Assembly: GCA_946624985.1 (NCBI GenBank)
Contig: CAMOSQ010000003.1
Coordinates: 1,255-65,254, forward strand
Source of the DNA: an uncultured Bacillales bacterium
Lineage (GTDB): Bacteria; Bacillota_I; Bacilli_A; RF39; UBA660
Reading direction: 5' to 3'
Length of the DNA stretch: 64,000 bases
In this document: positions 2,418 through 54,142 of the stretch, piece by piece
Layout of the letters: each line of letters starts with the position of its first letter
Position numbering within the stretch: the first letter of the stretch is position 1
Made by a program: the position numbers and the translations under genes
Notes under the pieces: generated by a model
Told to the model about the DNA's origin: nothing
Database searches by the model: none
The model's input: only the letters and a program-made list of their open reading frames with translations

Positions 2418-4004
2418 ATGAAGAATTTTATTAGTATTATTATTACTTTTGTTATAGGTTTTATATTGTATTATTTTATGTTACCGGCATTTAATTTTCA
2501 TAGTGTTGATTTTTGGATATTTTTAATTTTAGTTCTTTTTACTTATTTTATAGTTAATTTGTTTTTTAATGTTGAAAGTATTGACTTTAAGAATTATAAG
2601 TTTTTTAGTGGTTATAAGTATTTAGGTATTATTGTTATTATTTGTATTGTTGTTATAGGAAGTATTAATTTTATTTTATCGCCTTTATTTAATTCTAAAA
2701 GTTATAGGAATAGGATTTTTGTTGATTCTTCTACTGAATTTGTTAGTGAGGTTCCATTAGTTGATTTTAATTCTTTACCTCTTTTAGATAAGGATTCTAG
2801 TCAAAAATTAGGTGATAGGGTAATGGGTCAAATGCCTGAGTTAGTTTCTCAATTTTATGTATCTGATATTTATACTCAAATTAATTATAATGGTAGTGTT
2901 GTTAGGGTTACTCCTCTTGAGTATGATGGTGTTATTAAATATTTTTCTAATAGAAAAGATGGTATAAAGGGATATATTTCTGTTGATTCTGTAAATGGTG
3001 AAGTTCATTTAGTTAAGCTTGATAAAGGGTTAAGATATATGCCTAGTTCTATGTTTAATGAAAATTTATATCGTAAGTTAAGATTTTCTTATCCTACTAA
3101 AATTTTTGGTGATGTTTCTTTTGAAATTGATGATGAGGGAATTCCGTATTTTATTGTTCCTGTTATTTCTTATAGTGGTGTTGGTCTTAAGAGAGATGTT
3201 AAGGGCGTTATTATTTTTAATCCTGTAGATGGATCTAGTAATTATTATGATTCTTTGTCTGTTCCTAAGTGGGTTGATAATGTTTATAAGGCTGATGTGA
3301 TACTTGAGCAGGTGAATGATTGGGGTAAGTATACTAAAGGTTTTTGGAATTCTATATTTGGTCAAAGAAATGTTGTAGCTACTACTGATGGGTATAATTA
3401 TATGGCTTATAATGATGATATTTATTTGTATACAGGTATAACATCTTTGGCAACTGATGAGTCTAATATTGGTTTTATTTTGACTAATATGAGAACTAAG
3501 GAAACTAAGTATTATGCTGTTCCTGGCGCTGAAGAATATTCTGCTATGGCTTCTAGTGAAGGTCAGGTACAACAAATGGGGTATGTTTCTACTTTTCCTC
3601 TTTTGATTAATTTAAATGGGAGACCTACTTATTTAATGAGTTTAAAGGATAATGCAGGTTTGGTTAAAATGTATTCTTTTGTTGATGTTGTTGATTATCA
3701 AAAGGTTGTTGTTACTGATTCTTCTTTGGGAATTCGTGAAGCAAGTCGTAATTATTTAACTAAACTTGGTTTGGATGGAGTTAATGTTGATAAGTTAATT
3801 GTAAAAAAAATAAAGATTAAGTCTATTAATTCTTATATTATTGATGGTAATTCTGTTTTCTTTATTGTTGATGAAGAGGGTAATAAGTATAGTGTTAATA
3901 TAAGTGTTAATAAGGATATTTTGCCATTTTTATCTGTTGGTGATACTGTTAGTGTTGGATATCCTGTTGTTGATGATGTTATAAAAGTAATGGAAATTAA
4001 GTAA
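2418..4004 (+). CDS. Membrane-anchored protein with a large extracytoplasmic domain; function unknown
   Basis: The ATG at 2418 follows a GGAGG RBS. Two to three N-terminal TM helices precede a roughly 430-aa soluble domain with no recognisable catalytic motif. Confidence 0.5.
   Translation: MKNFISIIITFVIGFILYYFMLPAFNFHSVDFWIFLILVLFTYFIVNLFFNVESIDFKNYKFFSGYKYLGIIVIICIVVIGSINFILSPLFNSKSYRNRIFVDSSTEFVSEVPLVDFNSLPLLDKDSSQKLGDRVMGQMPELVSQFYVSDIYTQINYNGSVVRVTPLEYDGVIKYFSNRKDGIKGYISVDSVNGEVHLVKLDKGLRYMPSSMFNENLYRKLRFSYPTKIFGDVSFEIDDEGIPYFIVPVISYSGVGLKRDVKGVIIFNPVDGSSNYYDSLSVPKWVDNVYKADVILEQVNDWGKYTKGFWNSIFGQRNVVATTDGYNYMAYNDDIYLYTGITSLATDESNIGFILTNMRTKETKYYAVPGAEEYSAMASSEGQVQQMGYVSTFPLLINLNGRPTYLMSLKDNAGLVKMYSFVDVVDYQKVVVTDSSLGIREASRNYLTKLGLDGVNVDKLIVKKIKIKSINSYIIDGNSVFFIVDEEGNKYSVNISVNKDILPFLSVGDTVSVGYPVVDDVIKVMEIK
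3078..3575 (-). other. Antisense ORF inside the 2418..4004 gene; probably not coding
   Basis: It is an N/I/R-rich, low-complexity translation lying wholly inside a better-supported gene on the other strand. Confidence 0.1.
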
Positions 4005-47855: not shown

Positions 47856-48737
47856 ATGAAGAGTGATATCATGAAAAAATTATTTGGTGAAATTAATTTA
47901 ACATGGAAAAAATTAATTATTTTTTCGATTATAGCTGGAGTGTACACTGGTGTTATGGCAATGCTTCCAATTGCTGAAAATACCTCATTAGAGGATATAA
48001 GTATTTCATTTGAAGTATGGATATTATTTGGTATATTGATTATTATGAATAGTAAGTCTGCAAAAGATTCGGCATTAAAATGTTTTGTTTTCTTCTTGAT
48101 AAGTCAGCCTCTTGTTTATTTGGTTCAGGTGCCATTTAGTAATTTAGGATGGGGAATATTTAATTATTATAGAAACTGGATTGTTTGGACTATGTTAACA
48201 ATACCAATGGGATTTATTGGTTATTATATGAAAAAGGATAAGTTGTGGGGATTATTAATATTGGTTCCTATGTTAATATTTTTAGGTATACATTATAGTA
48301 ATTTTTTAGGAGAAACTATATATTATTTTCCATTTCATTTATTAAGTTGTTTATTTTGTTTTTTTACAATTTTAGTTTATCCTATAGTTATATTTGAAAA
48401 TAAAAGGATTAGGATTACTGGTGTTATAATAGGTATATTAATAATTCTTGCGATGAGTTTTATTCCACTATCTAAAGGAACTGTATATAATACAATTGTT
48501 TTAGTAAATGACGGTTCTGCGAGTGCAGTATTTGATGATAGTTATAAAGTTTATTTAAAAGATAGTAAGTTTGGTAATGTACATATAGAATATGACGAAT
48601 CACTTGATGATTATGAAGTTGTTGCAGAGTTTAAGAGAGGCGGTAAAACAGTTTTAATACTTGAAGATTCAAAGGGTAATAAAACTGAATATGATCTTGA
48701 TATAAAAAGGGACAAATATGATATAAATAAAAAGTAA
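47856..48737 (+). CDS. Hypothetical polytopic membrane protein
   Basis: 293 aa with about 7 TM helices and a soluble C-terminal tail. Confidence 0.4.
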   Translation: MKSDIMKKLFGEINLTWKKLIIFSIIAGVYTGVMAMLPIAENTSLEDISISFEVWILFGILIIMNSKSAKDSALKCFVFFLISQPLVYLVQVPFSNLGWGIFNYYRNWIVWTMLTIPMGFIGYYMKKDKLWGLLILVPMLIFLGIHYSNFLGETIYYFPFHLLSCLFCFFTILVYPIVIFENKRIRITGVIIGILIILAMSFIPLSKGTVYNTIVLVNDGSASAVFDDSYKVYLKDSKFGNVHIEYDESLDDYEVVAEFKRGGKTVLILEDSKGNKTEYDLDIKRDKYDINKK

Positions 48738-48874
48738 TATTAATGATGATGAAATTATAATTAATTTCATTTTTTTTGATAAAATTTGTTGAATAGGTGG
48801 TTCGTAGTTATGGTGATATTAATTGTTTTTAAAGTTCTTAAAAATAGAATAATTATGGTATAATGTTCTATGAA

Positions 48875-48975
48875 TTGGAGTTGAACCAAATGAGCGAAAA
48901 AAAAGGGTTTAATAAAACTAATATCAATTGGTATAATCCGACTTATGGAAAACCACTAACAAACTCTTATAATTA
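48875..48975 (+). repeat. Copy A of the rbgA translation-initiation region (RBS + first codons), ending in a 28-aa remnant ORF
   Basis: GGAGTTGAACCAAATGAGC...AATAAAACTAATATCAATTGGTAT is identical over 24 nt to the start of rbgA at 53285-53308. The remnant ORF is MSEKKGFNKTNINWYNPTYGKPLTNSYN. It is preceded by an extended -10 (TGGTATAAT at 48850-48858). Confidence 0.7.
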
Positions 48976-49037
48976 AAGATATTTAACTCAATTTCTTTTT
49001 ACATTTTGGAAGAAAAAATAGTGAAAAAATTTAAAAA

Positions 49038-50117
49038 ATGAGTGTAGTTACGACTTATGGAAAACTAAGATTTCAGATAAAGGAGATGATAATTTTGGCA
49101 AAAGATTTAATGATAAGAAGCAGTACTGAAGAATTTATAACATTTAAAATTAAGGAAAAGGAGAAAGGTATTCAAGTAAGATATGAAAATGAGACTTTAT
49201 GGATGACACAAAAAGCTATGGCCGAATTATTTGATGTTGAACAACCTGCAATAGCAAAGCATCTTATAAATATATATAATGAGAAAGAATTAGATAAAAA
49301 TTCAACTTATTCCAAAATGGAATTAGTTCAAAAAGAGGGAAACAGAAATGTTAAAAGAAATGTTGAGTTTTATAACTTGGATGCAATAATTTCAGTTGGA
49401 TATAGAGTAAATTCGATAAGAGCAACACAATTTAGAAGATGGGCAACTAACATTTTAAAAACATTCACTATTCAAGGATATGTTTTGGATAAAGAAAGAA
49501 TGAAAAACGGCTCATTTATTGATGATGATTATTTTGAAAAATTATTAGAAGAAATTAGAGAAATAAGACTATCAGAAAGAAGATTTTATCAAAAAGTAAC
49601 TGATATTTATGCTACAAGTATAGATTATGATGCTAAATCTCCAATTTCAATTAACTTTTTTAAAAAAGTTCAAAACAAAATGCATTATGCGGTATCTAAA
49701 CAGACTGCTGCAGAAATTATTTATGATAGAGCAAATTCAGAAAAAGAACATATGGGACTGACTTCTTGGAAAAAATCTCCTAATGGCAAAATAATGGAAT
49801 CTGATGTTGTAATTGCTAAAAATTATTTATCTAAAGATGAAATAAAAGATTTAGAAGGAATAGTCAGTGCTTTTTTAGAAATAGCAGAAAATAGGGCTAG
49901 AAGGCATATCCCAATGACTATGGAAGACTGGGCAACTTAATAGATAAATATTTATTACTTGATGATAGGGATATATTAAAAGATGCTGGTAAAATATCAC
50001 ACGAGATTGCTTGTGATAAATCATTAACAGAATTTGAAAAGTATAGAGTAAAACAAGATAAGCTGTATAAGTCAGATTTTGATTTATTATTGGAAGAAAG
50101 TAAAAAGGGTGATTAGA
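49038..50117 (+). pseudogene. RhuM-family (virulence_RhuM) protein gene, apparently frameshifted near its 3' end
   Basis: The 300-aa ORF 49038..49940 carries the RhuM core (ENETLWMTQKAMAELFDVEQPAIAKHL; FYNLDAIISVGYRVNSIRATQFRRWAT). The typical RhuM C-terminus (LLLDDRDILKDAGKISHEIACDKSLTEFEKYRVKQDKLYKSDFDLLLEE...) continues in the +1 frame from 49942 to the TAG at 50115-50117. Confidence 0.65.
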
Positions 50118-51005
50118 TGGTTAGAAAGATTATATTCTCATCTTGATAATCCAAATGAGTATGTGATTTTAGAAGGAGCACAAGGTTGTGATTTAGATTT
50201 AAATCATAGTGGTAATTATCCATATGTTACAAGCAGAAATGTTTCTACATCCCAATTACTAGCTGATTCAGGGATATCACCAGAAAGATTATTACAAACT
50301 ATAATGGTTATTAGGCCATTTCCTATTAGAATAAGTAATATTACTAAATTAGGAGATATTATATATACTGGTGCGTATGGAACTGGTCAAGAACTTACAT
50401 GGACTGAAATCAATGTTGCGGCTCAATTTGGATGGTATCCTTATAAAGAAATGTTAGATGATTTTAAAATTGAATATGAAGAAGATGAATTTTTAGAATA
50501 TGTAAGAGAAGATATATTAAGATGTCCTGAAATATATTTAAAGCAAATATTTGGAGATAAATATATTAATCCTACTGATGTAACTTTATTACAAGCATTA
50601 GAAATGGAAAGATTATATTATAAATCAATCGGTGAAAGAGAATATGAAAGTAACTATATTGAATTGCCTTTAACTGAATCAAAAGATTGTCCTACATGTA
50701 TTTATGATTTATCTGAACAAACTACTGTTACAAAGATGGAAAGAAGAATCTTTGATTTAGATATAAGAAAATTAATTAATAACTGTCGAATTAATACACC
50801 ATCTAGTTTATATTTAAATTTCTTTCAACATTTAAGTTATGCTCATAAAGGTTTAAATGGTAATTATGATGATATATATTTTGATAAACCATTAAGAGTT
50901 TATCTTGATTGGCTTGAAAGTGAAACTGGTATTGATATATCTACTTTAGGTACTGGTGCTAGAAATGATGAAAGAATAAAAAGAAAAGAATTAATAAAAA
51001 GATAG
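50079..51005 (+). pseudogene. Adenylosuccinate synthetase (PurA/PurZ)-like ORF lacking the N-terminal GTP-binding half
   Basis: VILEGAQGCDLDLNHSGNYPYVTSRNVS...ADSGISPE matches the PurA IMP-binding signature (LLEGAQG..LDIDHGTYPYVTSSN...ATGSGLGP). That motif normally lies about 220 aa into the protein, but here only about 25 codons precede it. Those codons overlap the RhuM tail and begin at a TTG. Confidence 0.5.
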
Positions 51006-51087
51006 GCTGGCCATATGACCTGGTAATGTAGAGTTGTAAATTGATTACAATTAATTTAAACCCCTAATAAATGTTATAAATTTAGAC

Positions 51088-51118
51088 AGATTAGTACAAA
51101 ATCTGCCTTTTTTATGCT
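51088..51118 (+). terminator. Terminator closing cassette 1
   Basis: CAGATT-agtacaa-AATCTG followed by CCTTTTTT. A TATAAT box at 51118-51123 lies immediately downstream. Confidence 0.6.
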
Positions 51119-51135
51119 ATAATTTTAATGATTTT

Positions 51136-51246
51136 AAAAAGGAGTTGATCCAAATGAATGAAAATAAAACTAATATAAACTGGTTGTTTACGATTTATCC
51201 AAGAATAGAAGAAAACCTAGGTAAAACAAGGGATTGTGGGATATAA
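51136..51246 (+). repeat. Copy B of the rbgA start-region repeat, with a 30-aa remnant ORF
   Basis: AAAAGGAGTTGATCCAAATGAATGAAAATAAAACTAATATAAACTGGTT is 47/48 identical to copy C. Its first 10 codons MNENKTNINW are the same as rbgA's, and it then diverges (..LFTIYPRIEENLGKTRDCGI*). Confidence 0.75.
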
Positions 51247-51382
51247 CATCTTGCAAGTTTTATATAAAGTTATGTTAAAATAGGGAAAAAATAATAAAAA
51301 ATGACTATTTTTAATGCAAAATATAGTAAGAAGTTTAAAGGTGATTACACCACCTAATAATAAGAATATTGAGGTAAATTAT

Positions 51383-52159
51383 ATGATTCACATTATGAAA
51401 TTGAAAGAACAATATTTCAATTATATTAGATATGGAACTAAGGAATATGAAATACGCTTAAATGATGAAAAAAGAAAAAATATAAAAAGTGGAGATTTTA
51501 TTGAGTTTCAAAAAGAACCATTTTTAGAAGAAAAAATGCTAATAATGGTTGATGACATATTACATTATGATAATTTCAACGAATTATTTAAGAACATAAA
51601 CATTGAGTTTTTAGCAGATTCATCAATAACAAAAAAACAATTAAATGCAGATTTAGAAAAATTTTATTCAATAGAGAAGCAAAAAGAATATGGTGTTGTT
51701 GCTATTAAGTTAAGAAAAGATATTGTAATTAATAATTCAAGTATTAATAATATTTCTTATAATGATAAAATTTTTGATATTTTAAAAAATAATTATTATA
51801 GTTTTGATTGTTGGTTTGATAAAATGAAATCTAACAATATTGATATATACTATACAAAGAAAGATAATAATATGACATCAATTATGATGTTAAAACTTGG
51901 CGAAACAGATTCTCAGCAATTTCTAGAGAAAGGCAATAAATTAAAAATTAGAACTCTTTTGGTTAATGATAAGAACAAAGGAATAGGGAAAACGTACATG
52001 AGTATTATTGATGACATTGCTATTAATAATAATATAGATTATATTTATTTAACCATAAAAAAAGATAATAAAGAATTAATTGATTTTATGAAAAGGTATG
52101 GATATAAGGAGTATAATCAATATAACGATGAATTTGTATATTATAAGGAGTTAAAATGA
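51383..52159 (+). CDS. ASCH-domain + GNAT acetyltransferase fusion protein
   Basis: The N-terminus MKLKEQYFNYIRYGTKEYEIRLNDEKRKNIKSGDFIEF is the ASCH/PUA-like beta-barrel signature. The C-terminus has GNAT motif A (NDKNKGIGKTYMS) and motif B (LIDFMKRYGYKE). The ATG at 51383 has a GAGGTAA RBS. Confidence 0.65.
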   Translation: MIHIMKLKEQYFNYIRYGTKEYEIRLNDEKRKNIKSGDFIEFQKEPFLEEKMLIMVDDILHYDNFNELFKNINIEFLADSSITKKQLNADLEKFYSIEKQKEYGVVAIKLRKDIVINNSSINNISYNDKIFDILKNNYYSFDCWFDKMKSNNIDIYYTKKDNNMTSIMMLKLGETDSQQFLEKGNKLKIRTLLVNDKNKGIGKTYMSIIDDIAINNNIDYIYLTIKKDNKELIDFMKRYGYKEYNQYNDEFVYYKELK

Positions 52160-52539
52160 GTATAATCTTAATGTCAATTAAACCTGAATATGTAGATAAA
52201 ATATTTACTGGCGAAAAGAAATACGAATATCGTAAAAGAATGTGCAAAGAAAAGATTGATACAATTATCGTATATTCTTCATCTTCAATACAAAAGGTTG
52301 TAGGAGAATTGAAAATAAAGCAGGTTTTATATGATAAGAAAACTATTATATGGAACACAACGTATAAGCAAGGCGGTATAACGAAAATTAAATATGATAA
52401 ATATTATGAAAATTGTGATTATGCTGTAGCATATGAAATAGAAAAATCAATATTATATGACAAACAAAAAGACTTAAAAGATTTTAATGTTAAAAAGGCG
52501 CCACAATCATATGTGTATATTACAAATAAAAGGAGTTGA
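52156..52539 (+). CDS. Stand-alone ASCH-domain protein
   Basis: MSIKPEYVDKIFTGEKKYEYRKR...IIVYSSSSIQKVVGEL is the ASCH signature. It overlaps the upstream gene by ATGA. Its stop codon lies inside repeat copy C. Confidence 0.6.
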   Translation: MSIILMSIKPEYVDKIFTGEKKYEYRKRMCKEKIDTIIVYSSSSIQKVVGELKIKQVLYDKKTIIWNTTYKQGGITKIKYDKYYENCDYAVAYEIEKSILYDKQKDLKDFNVKKAPQSYVYITNKRS

Positions 52540-52637
52540 TCCAAATGAATGAAAATAAAACAAATATAAACTGGTTGGCTTGTATTTATGCCGTACATCA
52601 CTTAAAGCCTTATAAAATGGGGACTTTTAAGAAATGA
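52528..52637 (+). repeat. Copy C of the rbgA start-region repeat, with a 30-aa remnant ORF
   Basis: It has the same 48-nt core as copy B. The remnant ORF is MNENKTNINWLACIYAVHHLKPYKMGTFKK*. Its downstream 80 nt are homologous to those after copy B, and both end at ATCTTGCAAGTTTTA. Confidence 0.75.
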
Positions 52638-52771
52638 GATCTTGCAAGTTTTAATAAAAAAAGAAGAAAAATTTGAAAAAACAGGTCAAGAATTACTCAT
52701 TTTTGAGGAGAATTAGGGTACTGGCTTGTAATATGCCGACACATTTAATATTTATAAAAAGAGGTGATAAA

Positions 52772-53251
52772 ATGGGGATATTTGTATTTGCCTTTACTGC
52801 GACTGGAAAATCAAATGTAGCTAAAAAGTATAAAAATGTTATAGATATGGAGTCAACACTTTATAAGTATATTGGTAATGACTTAGAAGATGAGTCTTTA
52901 AAAAGTACATCAAGATTTTTAAATGAAGAATGGCCAGAAAATTATTTTAAAGCACTAAAGGAAGTAAAAGACAAGTATGACTATATTTTAGTGGCTGATG
53001 AAATATGTAATGATTTTATATTAAACAATGGATATGAGTATTGGTATGTATATCCTAGAAGAGAATTAAAAGAAGAGTATTTAAACAGATGTAAAAAAAG
53101 AGGTAACAATGAAGAATTTATTTCTTGGTATTCAAAATTATGGGATGAGTGGATAGATAAATGTGAAGAAGATAAATGTGCATCAAAAAAAATAAAATTA
53201 AATAGTAATGAATATTTGGAAGATATACTTCCAAATTTGAAATTAAAATAA
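52772..53251 (+). CDS. Small P-loop NTPase / nucleotide-kinase-like protein (about 160 aa)
   Basis: The N-terminal Walker-A-like motif is FAFTATGKSN. Its size and layout resemble the shikimate/cytidylate/CPT-type kinase fold. The ATG at 52772 has an AGAGGTGA RBS. Confidence 0.5.
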   Translation: MGIFVFAFTATGKSNVAKKYKNVIDMESTLYKYIGNDLEDESLKSTSRFLNEEWPENYFKALKEVKDKYDYILVADEICNDFILNNGYEYWYVYPRRELKEEYLNRCKKRGNNEEFISWYSKLWDEWIDKCEEDKCASKKIKLNSNEYLEDILPNLKLK

Positions 53252-53272
53252 TTAATAAAGGAGATGACTCTC

Positions 53273-54142
53273 ATGAATGAAAATAAAACTAATATCAATT
53301 GGTATCCAGGTCATATGGCTAAAACAAAAAGATTAATAAGTGAGAATATTAATAAAATAGATGTTGTATATGAAGTAATAGATGCAAGAATGCCATATTC
53401 ATCAAAGATAAAAGATATAAAAAACTATATAAATAATAAACCAGTTATTTTAATAATGACGAAGATAGATTTATGTGATATGAAAGAAACAAATAAATGG
53501 ATAAAGTATTATGAAAATTTAGGTTATAAAGTATTAGGTATAGATCTTGAACACAATCCTAATCTAAAAAAAATAATTAATGCGACAAATGAAATAATGC
53601 AGGAAAAAGTGGAAAAAAGAATTGATAAGGGTATGATTAAGAGAAAGACAAGGGTATTAGTGGTTGGAATTCCTAATTGTGGAAAATCTACATTAATAAA
53701 TAGATTGGCTGGGAAAAAGGTTGTTGGAACTGGTAATAAACCTGGAATAACAAAGGAATTAAGTTGGATAAGAGTTAATGATGAAGTTGAATTACTAGAT
53801 ACACCTGGTATTTTATGGCCTAAGTTAGATCAGGAAACTGTTGCTTTAAATTTAGCTAGTTTAAGTGCTATAAAGGAAGAAATATTACCAATATACAATG
53901 TATTTTCATATATAATAAGTACTTTATATAAGTATTATCCAAATATACTTGAAGAAAGATACGGTATAAAAGAATTATCAGAAGATATGATTGAAAATAT
54001 GGATATAATTGGTAAGAGAAGAGGTTGTATATTAAGAGGTAATGAAATTGATTATGATAAAGTAATGAGTATTGTTTTAAATGATTTAAAAAGTGGTATA
54101 ATAAAGTCAATAACGTTTGAAAGAGTAAGTGATTATGAATAA
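53273..54142 (+). CDS. rbgA: Ribosome biogenesis GTPase A (YlqF/RbgA)
   Basis: NINWYPGHMAK at the N-terminus is followed by the circularly permuted GTPase motifs NKID (as TKIDL), GIPNCGKST and DTPG. The ATG at 53273 is preferred, because the ATG at 53264 abuts the RBS. Confidence 0.9.
   Translation: MNENKTNINWYPGHMAKTKRLISENINKIDVVYEVIDARMPYSSKIKDIKNYINNKPVILIMTKIDLCDMKETNKWIKYYENLGYKVLGIDLEHNPNLKKIINATNEIMQEKVEKRIDKGMIKRKTRVLVVGIPNCGKSTLINRLAGKKVVGTGNKPGITKELSWIRVNDEVELLDTPGILWPKLDQETVALNLASLSAIKEEILPIYNVFSYIISTLYKYYPNILEERYGIKELSEDMIENMDIIGKRRGCILRGNEIDYDKVMSIVLNDLKSGIIKSITFERVSDYE

Follow-up and report, generated by a model that had tools for sequence, protein, structure and literature searches.

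Gene cassettes stacked in tandem at the 5′ end of rbgA in uncultured Bacilli, probably through large serine recombinases supplied in trans

Why does the start of an essential gene occur four times in a row, with other genes lodged between the copies? This question is raised by a stretch of 64,000 nucleotides from an uncultured Bacillales bacterium (contig CAMOSQ010000003.1, positions 1,255 to 65,254 of the forward strand; the whole stretch is called the window below). It carries rbgA, which encodes the ribosome biogenesis GTPase A of 289 aa (53273..54142, + strand; Pfam MMR_HSR1 and RsgA_GTPase), preceded by repeated copies of the ribosome-binding site (RBS) and first codons of that gene. Our reading, to which we give a probability of roughly 70%, is that integrase-less cassettes accreted at rbgA by way of large serine recombinases (LSRs) supplied in trans, in a manner like that of the staphylococcal cassette chromosome (SCC).

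When a profile of the repeated core was run over the 64 kb, four copies of the rbgA RBS and first codons were found, all on the + strand (~48877, 51137, 52528 and 53256), and no sites beyond those four; a 23-nt start motif had 3 matches in the window against 0.02 expected by chance. A first-pass annotation of this DNA had placed partial rbgA starts upstream of the gene at about 48875, 51136 and 52528, and all of them are there. Copy A, of attL type, extends over 48856..48931, with TGGTATAAT at 48856-48864, GGAG at 48877-48880, ATG at 48890, the codons MSEKKGFNKTNINW and a terminal TGG at 48929-48931. Copy B has GGAG at 51141-51144, ATG at 51154, the codons for MNENKTNINW and TGG at 51181-51183. 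Copy C (52528-52574) has its RBS at 52532 and its ATG at 52545, likewise followed by MNENKTNINW, and copy D (RBS 53260, ATG 53273) reads MNENKTNINW and then runs into the YPGHM... of genuine RbgA. Copies A, B and C each lead into the cassette that bears the same letter. Across the 48-nt core, copies B and C differ at a single position, in agreement with the 47/48 identity noted earlier. A 24-nt segment of copy A, AATAAAACTAATATCAATTGGTAT (48911-48934), equals genuine rbgA (53282-53305) without a mismatch, and this much of an earlier description of copy A as a mosaic stands. The mosaic reading itself does not: copy A, which has a 12-nt insertion giving MSEKKGFNKTNINW where the other copies read MNENKTNINW, and whose N-terminal variant also precedes rbgA in another locus (L059), is probably the displaced original 5′ end of this genome's rbgA. 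Upstream of copy B lies a full native-type rbgA promoter (hairpin, T-run and TGCTATAAT at 51115-51123), a region near-identical to the DNA directly upstream of rbgA in L016, L062 and L068; copy B is a right arm bearing a promoter.

The similarity of all four copies stops sharply past ...AAYTG(G), namely after 48931, 51183, 52574 and 53302, and these breaks give the bounds of three cassettes: A (48932..51183, 2252 bp), B (51184..52574, 1391 bp) and C (52575..53302, 728 bp), all on the + strand. Cassette A is composite. Behind its left arm X (TATAATCCGACTTATGGAAAAC...) and leader (48932..49094) come a RhuM gene and a truncated PurA/PurZ-like gene, and its right arm, which is identical with copy B (51086..51183: hairpin with T-run, TGCTATAAT, GGAG, ATG and MNENKTNINW), includes the native-type promoter. 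Cassette B consists of a left arm X (TTGTTTACGATTTATCC...), a leader up to X′ at ~51340-51362 (X′ being a second copy of X), two genes, and copy C as its right arm. Cassette C comprises a left arm X (TTGGCTTGTATTTATGCCG...), a leader, X′ at ~52721-52746, one gene and the right arm GGAGATGACTCTC-ATGAATGAAAATAAAACTAATATCAATTGG (53260-53302), which is now the RBS and first 10 codons of rbgA. From the position of the last junction, rbgA is native only from the Trp codon (53300) on, its RBS and first 9-10 codons belonging to cassette C. The GC content of the cassettes (0.23-0.27) is the same as that of the flanks. Upstream synteny is not conserved between species and gives no help at the left edge, so that the left boundary of the array rests on the lack of further core copies in the window.

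Has this DNA moved? Relatives of the locus were found in uncultured gut and rumen metagenome-assembled genomes (MAGs) labelled Bacilli, Mycoplasmatota, 'Tenericutes' or Erysipelotrichaceae, with RbgA at 55-87% identity (loci are cited below by L or P number); by RbgA, the nearest named organism is Clostridium sp. CAG:433. Homologous cassettes share 86-97% DNA identity between species whose RbgA proteins are 50-70% identical, and the left 1.2 kb of cassette A matches the RhuM cassettes in L013 and L081 at 87-89% identity, where RbgA reaches only 57-65%. For cassette C, the identity is 99-100% in L090/L091, L093, L094-L096 and L097, where rbgA shows 71-81% identity. In those loci cassette C adjoins rbgA or lies 2-3 cassettes away, with different neighbours, and in the comparison with L093 the identity drops from ~100% to ~70% exactly at the junction (53302, Trp codon). 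Four further loci (L051, L053, L054 and L059) have rbgA genes that are 98.6-99.2% identical from the Trp codon on and yet carry four different 5′ regions, N-termini and arrays; L059 exceeds L054 by 3.4 kb (two cassettes), inserted exactly at ...AAATTG^. Discrete units have spread horizontally, and content varies strongly between related genomes, which bears out the earlier proposal that the start of an essential gene has been used repeatedly for acquiring accessory DNA and regenerated each time. The comparison with relatives that had been suggested as a check thus returned strong differences rather than the uniform content of an ancient fixed arrangement.

The junctions of cassette C indicate where the exchange takes place. 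Its right arm (GGAGATGACTCTC-ATG...ATCAATTG) stays the same in 8 contexts, down to its private polymorphisms (GACTCTC and ATCAATTG), and is followed either by rbgA (TATCC or TACCC) or by one of at least 4 different X arms. The left core at cassette C varies with the upstream neighbour, and the base after TTG (G or C) follows the downstream partner; the invariant right arm together with the partner-linked next base indicates that the core in its full length is part of the 3′ end of the cassette upstream. Judged from these alignments, exchange would always fall within 1-2 nt, with the breakpoint at ...AAYTG^. Hybrid cores, expected if recombination is scattered across the 46-nt homology, were not seen in the 8 cassette C contexts. 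In all junctions the breakpoint stands at ...AAYTG^N, compatible with a TG crossover, and the conserved left arms begin exactly at the break. Such a fixed breakpoint points to site-specific recombination and not to scattered homologous recombination. Of the two mechanisms that the first-pass annotation had left open, homologous recombination within the gene start and a site-specific recombinase encoded elsewhere, the latter is favoured, since the breakpoint is fixed within ~2 nt and a clade of LSRs is associated with the site. One atypical junction was observed in L053 (L053:2800-2960, 3780-3900), where the upstream copy runs ~50 nt past the Trp codon into rbgA (…WYPGHMAKTKRQIKEK and then a stop), a duplication of ~80 nt instead of 30; it perhaps arose from a different recombination event or enzyme.

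How widely is this arrangement distributed in the lineage? The polarity is uniform: in 80 loci, every core copy lies upstream of rbgA and on the rbgA strand. By profile scan, 1-5 extra core copies are present in 21 of the 44 loci with at least 3 kb of upstream sequence and absent from the other 23; five were counted in L012, L056 and L073, and a looser motif scan adds a sixth in L012. Empty sites show a hairpin, a T-run, TGnTATAAT, ~25 nt, AAGGAGTTGATCCAA, and then ATGAATGAAAATAAAACTAATATAAATTGG followed directly by TATCC, a layout that, from its sequence, is taken to be the native arrangement of the rbgA 5′ end. Many independent assemblies show arrays, some of them on long contigs (351 kb, 545 kb and 1.19 Mb). 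Nineteen of 79 contigs stop within 600 nt upstream of the Trp codon, and just one of the 79 ends less than 600 nt past the rbgA coding region; contig breaks on the upstream side are as expected for a repeated, strain-variable segment. The peptide MNENKTNINW, and even the RBS region, is identical in RbgA proteins that are otherwise ~58% identical, with the limit that the frequency of this peptide is biased upward because the loci were partly found through it. Array genes (101 ORFs) are nearly all co-oriented with rbgA and highly diverse, and they are packed in cassettes of 0.6-4 kb, mostly with 1-2 genes. Recurrent cargo includes GNATs, helix-turn-helix (HTH) proteins, RhuM, KilA-N/Bro-N, ASCH, NADAR, cytidine/dCMP deaminases, MazG and AbiEii-like ATPases. 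Note that the arrays of L090:1-8200, L091, L094-L097 and L106 are rich in GNAT acetyltransferases and nucleotide-metabolism enzymes (dCMP/cytidine deaminases, dUTPase_2, NUDIX, MazG, AAA_18/AAA_33 kinases, UDG and NTP_transf_6), and that reverse transcriptases (RVT_1) adjoin the LSR in L100 and L102; this cargo may reflect a theme of defence or counter-defence.

Which enzyme could recombine the site? LSRs, with Resolvase, Recombinase and Zn_ribbon_recom domains, are the sole type of site-specific recombinase in the arrays. Of the 80 loci in the RbgA-seeded set, 8 have an LSR or a fragment of one upstream of rbgA, and none has one downstream: L065, L064 and L019 carry the LSR immediately ahead of rbgA or of a junction, and L009, L032, L043, L053 and L070 carry fragments. 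An LSR with all three domains is adjacent to the element end in L065, L083-L085, L064, L019, L099 and L102-L110. In L065, an LSR of 415 aa sits at the right end of a 3.6-kb element. The left boundary of this element is a junction of core and X, and at its right boundary the element's own promoter, RBS and N-terminal arm are fused to rbgA. At 96-98% identity, this LSR adjoins rbgA genes whose identity to one another is no more than 44-64%. The LSR of L084 lies inside the array, and the X arm of the following cassette adjoins its right arm at ...CAATTGG; in L096, cassette C and an LSR occur in the same array. In both of these loci, units with an LSR have the same junctions as units without one. 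Arms next to an LSR diverge more, the common part being only ...AT[CT]AA[CT]TGG. When the search was started from the LSR, relatives at 41-55% identity were found 0-2 genes upstream of rbgA, on the same strand, in P0007, P0013, P0020, P0027, P0029 and P0104, and a seventh, P0008, is cut by an IS30-like gene. L100 was considered as a counter-example, with an LSR that is not beside rbgA, and was rejected, its right end being cut at the -10 box beside an IS30-like gene. The LSR element of L100:5560-7001 is otherwise the same as the rbgA-adjacent one in L102, the IS30-like (HTH_38) gene lies on the opposite strand, and the truncation appears to be a secondary rearrangement of the LSR element.

By family, the LSRs are generic: their best NCBIfam models are XisF and CcrB/C/A, all far under cut-off, their best PDB matches are the TnpX, TP901-1 and PhiC31 integrases, and the phrog_95 integrase also matches. 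The LSR gene itself was ruled out as a junction-bounded cassette, with homology of the LSR module starting at a palindrome 90 nt upstream of the gene. This conserved module opens with the perfect palindrome ATCGCAATAT-TAAG-ATATTGCGAT (L065:2820-2900, L083:3870-3953, L084:6925-7003, L085 and L086), followed by a terminator-like hairpin and a TGTTATAAT promoter; the palindrome may be an operator controlling the recombinase. A triplet of serine recombinases (~155 aa, ~550-570 aa and ~530-545 aa) lies directly upstream of rbgA or of a core copy in L064:5716-9909 and in the IMG/VR contig L082:2497-6247 (- strand). L082, with its LSR triplet and GNAT cassettes, gave the one core match among viral contigs. 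The triplets of L064 and L082 recall the 'triplet of serine integrases' reported for some streptococcal integrative and conjugative elements (ICEs; PMC4701971).

No recombinase was found in the 64-kb window by tblastn with four LSRs, by a tyrosine-recombinase regular expression or by an Xer-derived hidden Markov model (HMM), and the recombinase half of the earlier statement that the window holds no integrase or transposase is hereby confirmed. The regular expression and the HMM also found no tyrosine integrase in any array or upstream of rbgA in the window and ~100 loci. Nine loci (L061:15709-16602, L062:4297-5193, L074:16802-17719, L075, L076, L077, L078, L033 and L044) have an Xer-like tyrosine recombinase gene of ~300 aa at a distance of 4-7 kb downstream of rbgA; it was not detected in the window and is probably a housekeeping Xer.

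How, then, could cassettes be stacked at rbgA with the gene kept in working order? We propose that the three integrase-less cassettes of the window (48.9-53.3 kb) accreted serially by site-specific recombination at one point, the TG of the Trp codon before YPGHM, at ~nt 28-29 of the rbgA coding sequence (CDS). Each cassette would follow a common plan of a left arm X of ~25 nt, often a leader of ~150-190 nt, 1-2 co-oriented genes, and a right arm of ~46 nt that holds an RBS, an ATG and ~10 codons (MNENKTNINW), with a full promoter ahead of it in some cassettes. A circular element or cassette would carry the right arm joined to the left arm X, and an LSR would recombine this element junction with the rbgA 5′ site. 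The inserted right arm would then supply rbgA with its RBS, ATG, N-terminal codons and sometimes promoter, so that the essential gene is kept intact, and the old rbgA start would be displaced upstream, fused to X and left as a short remnant ORF. As the right arm copies the left half of the target, the regenerated junction would be target-like again, which would allow serial insertion and hence tandem arrays. The enzyme is most likely an LSR of the ~400-415-aa clade, and other LSRs, including the triplets, are also at the site. It would be carried by sibling elements at the same site and act in trans here, the LSR-less cassettes keeping both arms. Both the catalysis by an LSR and the TG crossover dinucleotide are steps that we infer from the association of LSRs with the site and from the position of the break.

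Several points weigh against this proposal. Given that the 64 kb covered hold no LSR, the action in trans on LSR-less cassettes is likewise something we infer. Dyad symmetry at attB or at the junctions was not above that of shuffled sequences. No circular junction or excised form was observed, and viral contigs gave no match to the cassette C right arm or to the predicted circular junction, ...CTAATATCAATTG joined to GTTGGCTTGTATTTATGCCG. The attP and attB sites of classical LSRs share little past the central dinucleotide. Most right arms, unlike these, copy ~46 nt of the native site, which looks more like the identity segment of a tyrosine integrase; we attribute the identity between arm and target to selection that keeps rbgA translated. 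The left arms X are of several dissimilar types, and one recombinase might not recognise them all. Finally, streptococcal ICEs that have tyrosine integrases insert at this site too (PMC4701971, PMC8571831).

Could RecA-dependent homologous recombination alone have built the array? The ~46-nt cores would then act as direct repeats, with circles being excised and re-inserted Campbell-style or arrays being swapped by transformation. Such an origin is in line with the 90-100% identity of the repeats across ~46 nt, with the leader loss in L094-96, which resembles a deletion between the short repeats X and X′, and with the atypical junction of L053, which duplicates ~80 nt of rbgA; moreover, Tn5253 itself is movable by homologous recombination of its flanks (PMC8571831). 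However, it predicts mosaic cores, whereas the cassette C right arm is invariant up to ...CAATTG in all 8 contexts. The rbgA flanks (71-81% nucleotide identity) are also too diverged for interspecies exchange of cassettes that are 99-100% identical, the left arms start precisely at the break, and a recombinase clade is dedicated to the site, and we regard homologous recombination alone as unlikely. A tyrosine integrase of the Tn5252/Tn5253 type, encoded elsewhere or past the sequenced flanks, might instead catalyse the exchange, the LSR genes being cargo. The streptococcal ICEs at the rbgA 5′ end show the same geometry (PMC4701971, PMC8571831), and a long identity between element and target is typical of tyrosine integrases. 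Yet the ~100 loci have no such enzyme upstream of rbgA, the Xer-like genes 4-7 kb downstream being the only candidates. The sequence left of the break differs by partner (CAATTG, AAACTG, AAATTG or TAACTG), a poor fit to an identical overlap of 6-8 bp, and the LSRs stand at a constant position beside the right arm and track the site across hosts. We therefore consider a tyrosine integrase quite unlikely.

An integron-like origin, in which folded sites of attC type are captured by an integrase of IntI type, would account for small, co-oriented, mostly single-gene cassettes with highly diverse cargo that includes defence candidates, and the cassette sizes of 0.6-2.5 kb are within the integron range. 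This membership is effectively refuted: the arrays contain no IntI or other tyrosine recombinase, single-stranded DNA folding of 10 junction types is no better than that of shuffles (z -0.8 to +1.4) and so gives no attC-type folding, RNAalifold finds no consensus structure, and the repeat is a copy of a gene start and not an attC. Nor do we give more than a very slight chance to an ancient, fixed segmental duplication that no longer moves, or to an assembly artefact. The frameshifted RhuM gene and the truncated PurA-like gene suggest that part of cassette A is decaying, as a fixed duplication would allow, but content differs between near-identical genomes, 99-100% identical cassettes occupy different positions in different species, and the long contigs from independent assemblies mentioned above speak against an artefact. 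Accretion of integrase-less cassettes through LSRs acting in trans is the reading that we prefer among these.

What do the cassettes carry in this genome? In cassette A, the RhuM-family gene (49095..50117, +) matches Pfam PF13310 (4.7e-96) and the PADLOC candidate defence family PDC-S05 (4e-132); it is interrupted by a frameshift/stop near 49938-49940, with the C-terminal part running on in another frame to 50117, and its homologues are of 330-375 aa. The PurA/PurZ-like (adenylosuccinate-synthetase-like) fragment (50079..51005, +) is N-terminally truncated and lacks its N-terminal half (~190 residues). Its Pfam match spans profile positions 187-266 of 416, phrog_1211 also matches, and the NCBIfam PurZ and PurA scores are far under cut-off. 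As judged from these ORFs, cassette A may be partly decayed, or there may be a sequencing error. Gene B1 of cassette B (51383..52159, +) encodes a 258-aa protein with an ASCH domain and a GNAT acetyltransferase domain (Pfam ASCH and Acetyltransf_1; PADLOC PDC-M11A, 5.7e-26), and gene B2 (52156..52539, +) encodes a 127-aa ASCH-domain protein (PADLOC PDC-M11B, 2e-41; phrog_3136), so that B1 and B2 match both components of the PADLOC candidate system PDC-M11. The TGA stop of B2 falls within the RBS region of copy C (GGAGTTGATCC, 52528-52539), and cargo ORFs frequently stop within the RBS region of the next core in other arrays as well (L012:6881, L073:3872/4535/9680 and L008:1057); this arrangement suggests tight packing and possibly translational coupling to the following start. 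Gene C of cassette C (52772..53251, +) encodes a 159-aa protein that matches phrog_4182 (8e-34), shows a Walker-A-like motif, TATGKS, by eye, and has no Pfam, NCBIfam or PADLOC match. At least 22 contigs encode exactly this gene C protein. No RNA family was found when 48000-54000 was scanned against Rfam at E<=1.

In most cassettes, a conserved leader of ~150-190 nt separates the left arm X from X′, which is a type-matched second copy of X just ahead of the cargo RBS (29 leader modules aligned). The leaders of the window lie at 48932-49094, 51184-51382 and 52575-52771. The first-pass annotation had seen ~80 nt of homology after copies B and C, but the homology in fact extends over ~150-200 nt and represents this module. 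In cassette A, the type-matched X′ (CGACTTATGGAAAAC) is at ~49047-49066 (+), and the same architecture of left arm and leader is found at L076_5575 and L081_8247. The leader contains the palindrome CCTTATAAAATAAGG, seen by eye, and the motif ATCTTGCATGTTTTATATAAAAATATGTTAAAAT, which may combine a -35 element with an extended -10 element; RNAalifold on the 29 modules found no consensus pairs. Copies of cassette C that are otherwise 99.5% identical occur with and without the leader, and in the form that lacks it X and X′ are merged into a hybrid, which is what a deletion between these two repeats would leave. At junction A (48929-48937), ...AATTGG joined to the left arm TATAATCC makes TGGTATAAT, an extended -10-like sequence that points into cassette A, and the X type of this junction recurs in L076 and L081 as TGGTATAAACC. 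A consensus promoter scan of the array gave promoter-like sites no more commonly than in shuffled sequences, and no terminators, so that the promoters named here (TGnTATAAT ahead of copies A and B) are assigned from their conservation between loci. No promoter was found between gene C and rbgA; transcription of rbgA must therefore start within or upstream of the array.

A wider reading, which we regard as possible but doubtful when all of its parts are taken together, is that the array is a serine-recombinase counterpart of the integron and serves the lineage as a gene-capture platform. Each cassette may be built from no more than a left arm (~25 nt), 1-2 genes and a right arm (~46 nt) at which translation of an essential gene also begins, and a dedicated clade of short LSRs may insert, stack and exchange cassettes between species in trans. 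Genes for defence and nucleotide metabolism may thereby be banked, with their expression and retention coupled to rbgA, and the leader with its X and X′ may be a functional part, either a promoter cassette or an accessory site. If this is true, a whole lineage of uncultured gut and rumen Bacilli with small genomes would store a large part of its flexible genes at one addressable spot, among them candidate anti-phage genes, GNATs and nucleotide deaminases, hydrolases and kinases. The locus would also show, as a clean natural case, how mobile DNA can give an essential gene a new promoter, RBS and N-terminus without harm. In addition, compact (~400-415 aa) serine integrases with a natural target of ~50 bp and many donor arms would be of interest for genome engineering, and a systematic break in MAG assemblies of the lineage would be explained.

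How does the array compare with known systems? Tn5253 inserts after nt 20 of the rbgA CDS and duplicates an 83-bp attB that spans the upstream region, the rbgA CDS being restored and the element-borne copy adjoining rbgA (PMC8571831, PMC6079316, PMC4701971). The rbgA 5′ end is thus an already established ICE attachment site, and the target itself is not new. ICEs of the Tn5253/Tn5252 type share with the window the target gene and its end, the att duplication of the upstream region plus first codons, the restored CDS, the break at the right edge of the repeat, and an N-terminus that can be altered (as in E. faecalis). They differ in being conjugative elements of 20-65 kb with tyrosine integrases, usually present singly, whereas the arrays comprise up to six or more cassettes of less than 1 kb to 4 kb and are associated with LSRs. 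The cassettes of the window are of 0.7-2.3 kb with 1-2 cargo genes, and no tyrosine integrase of the ICE type was found there. The break of Tn5253 presumably falls at the same codon as here, if nt 20 is counted on a CDS that we take to begin MATIQWFPGHM. Integrons resemble the arrays in their ordered, small, co-oriented single-gene cassettes, in cargo that is diverse and partly defensive, and in cassettes shared between arrays; they differ in having IntI, attC hairpins and an attI/Pc platform, none of which is present here, where a functional gene start forms the repeat and the array is tied to an essential gene in both transcription and translation.

Integrase-less, att-bounded units stacked at one site, with partial target copies at the boundaries, are also known from cis-mobilizable elements (CIMEs), from accretion of ICEs and integrative and mobilizable elements, and from the tycheposons of Prochlorococcus. 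CIMEs and tycheposons involve tyrosine recombinases, mostly use tRNA genes or 3′ gene ends, are larger, and have no uniform cassette ends. Cassettes A-C of the window are CIME-like in that they have no recombinase and carry the same junctions as LSR-bearing units, and their excision and integration would be performed by the LSR of a relative. In the literature, we found no description of miniature, uniform cassettes in arrays of up to six units at rbgA, of the link between such arrays and LSRs, or of their spread over a lineage of uncultured Bacilli.

The SCC/SCCmec elements and the Enterococcus cassette chromosome share more with the arrays. In both cases, LSRs are linked to insertion at a fixed point in one end of a conserved housekeeping gene with a role related to the ribosome, a repeat carried on the element restores that end, the site is reused so that tandem arrays form, and the many recombinase-less members are thought to be moved in trans. 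Like SCC composites, the arrays have units flanked by direct repeats of the target end, and their tandem composites include recombinase-less units. The target of SCC is the 3′ end of rlmH (orfX), whereas here it is the 5′ end of rbgA, with the RBS, start codon, N-terminus and sometimes the promoter. SCC cassettes are also far larger than the array cassettes, whose hosts are uncultured low-GC gut Bacilli, and the array LSRs are shorter (~400-415 aa) and are not Ccr orthologues (61-107 bits with the NCBIfam CcrA/B/C models versus cut-offs of 700-900). Of the systems compared, SCC composite islands are the closest functional analogue of the rbgA arrays, with membership failing on the recombinase family and on the target.

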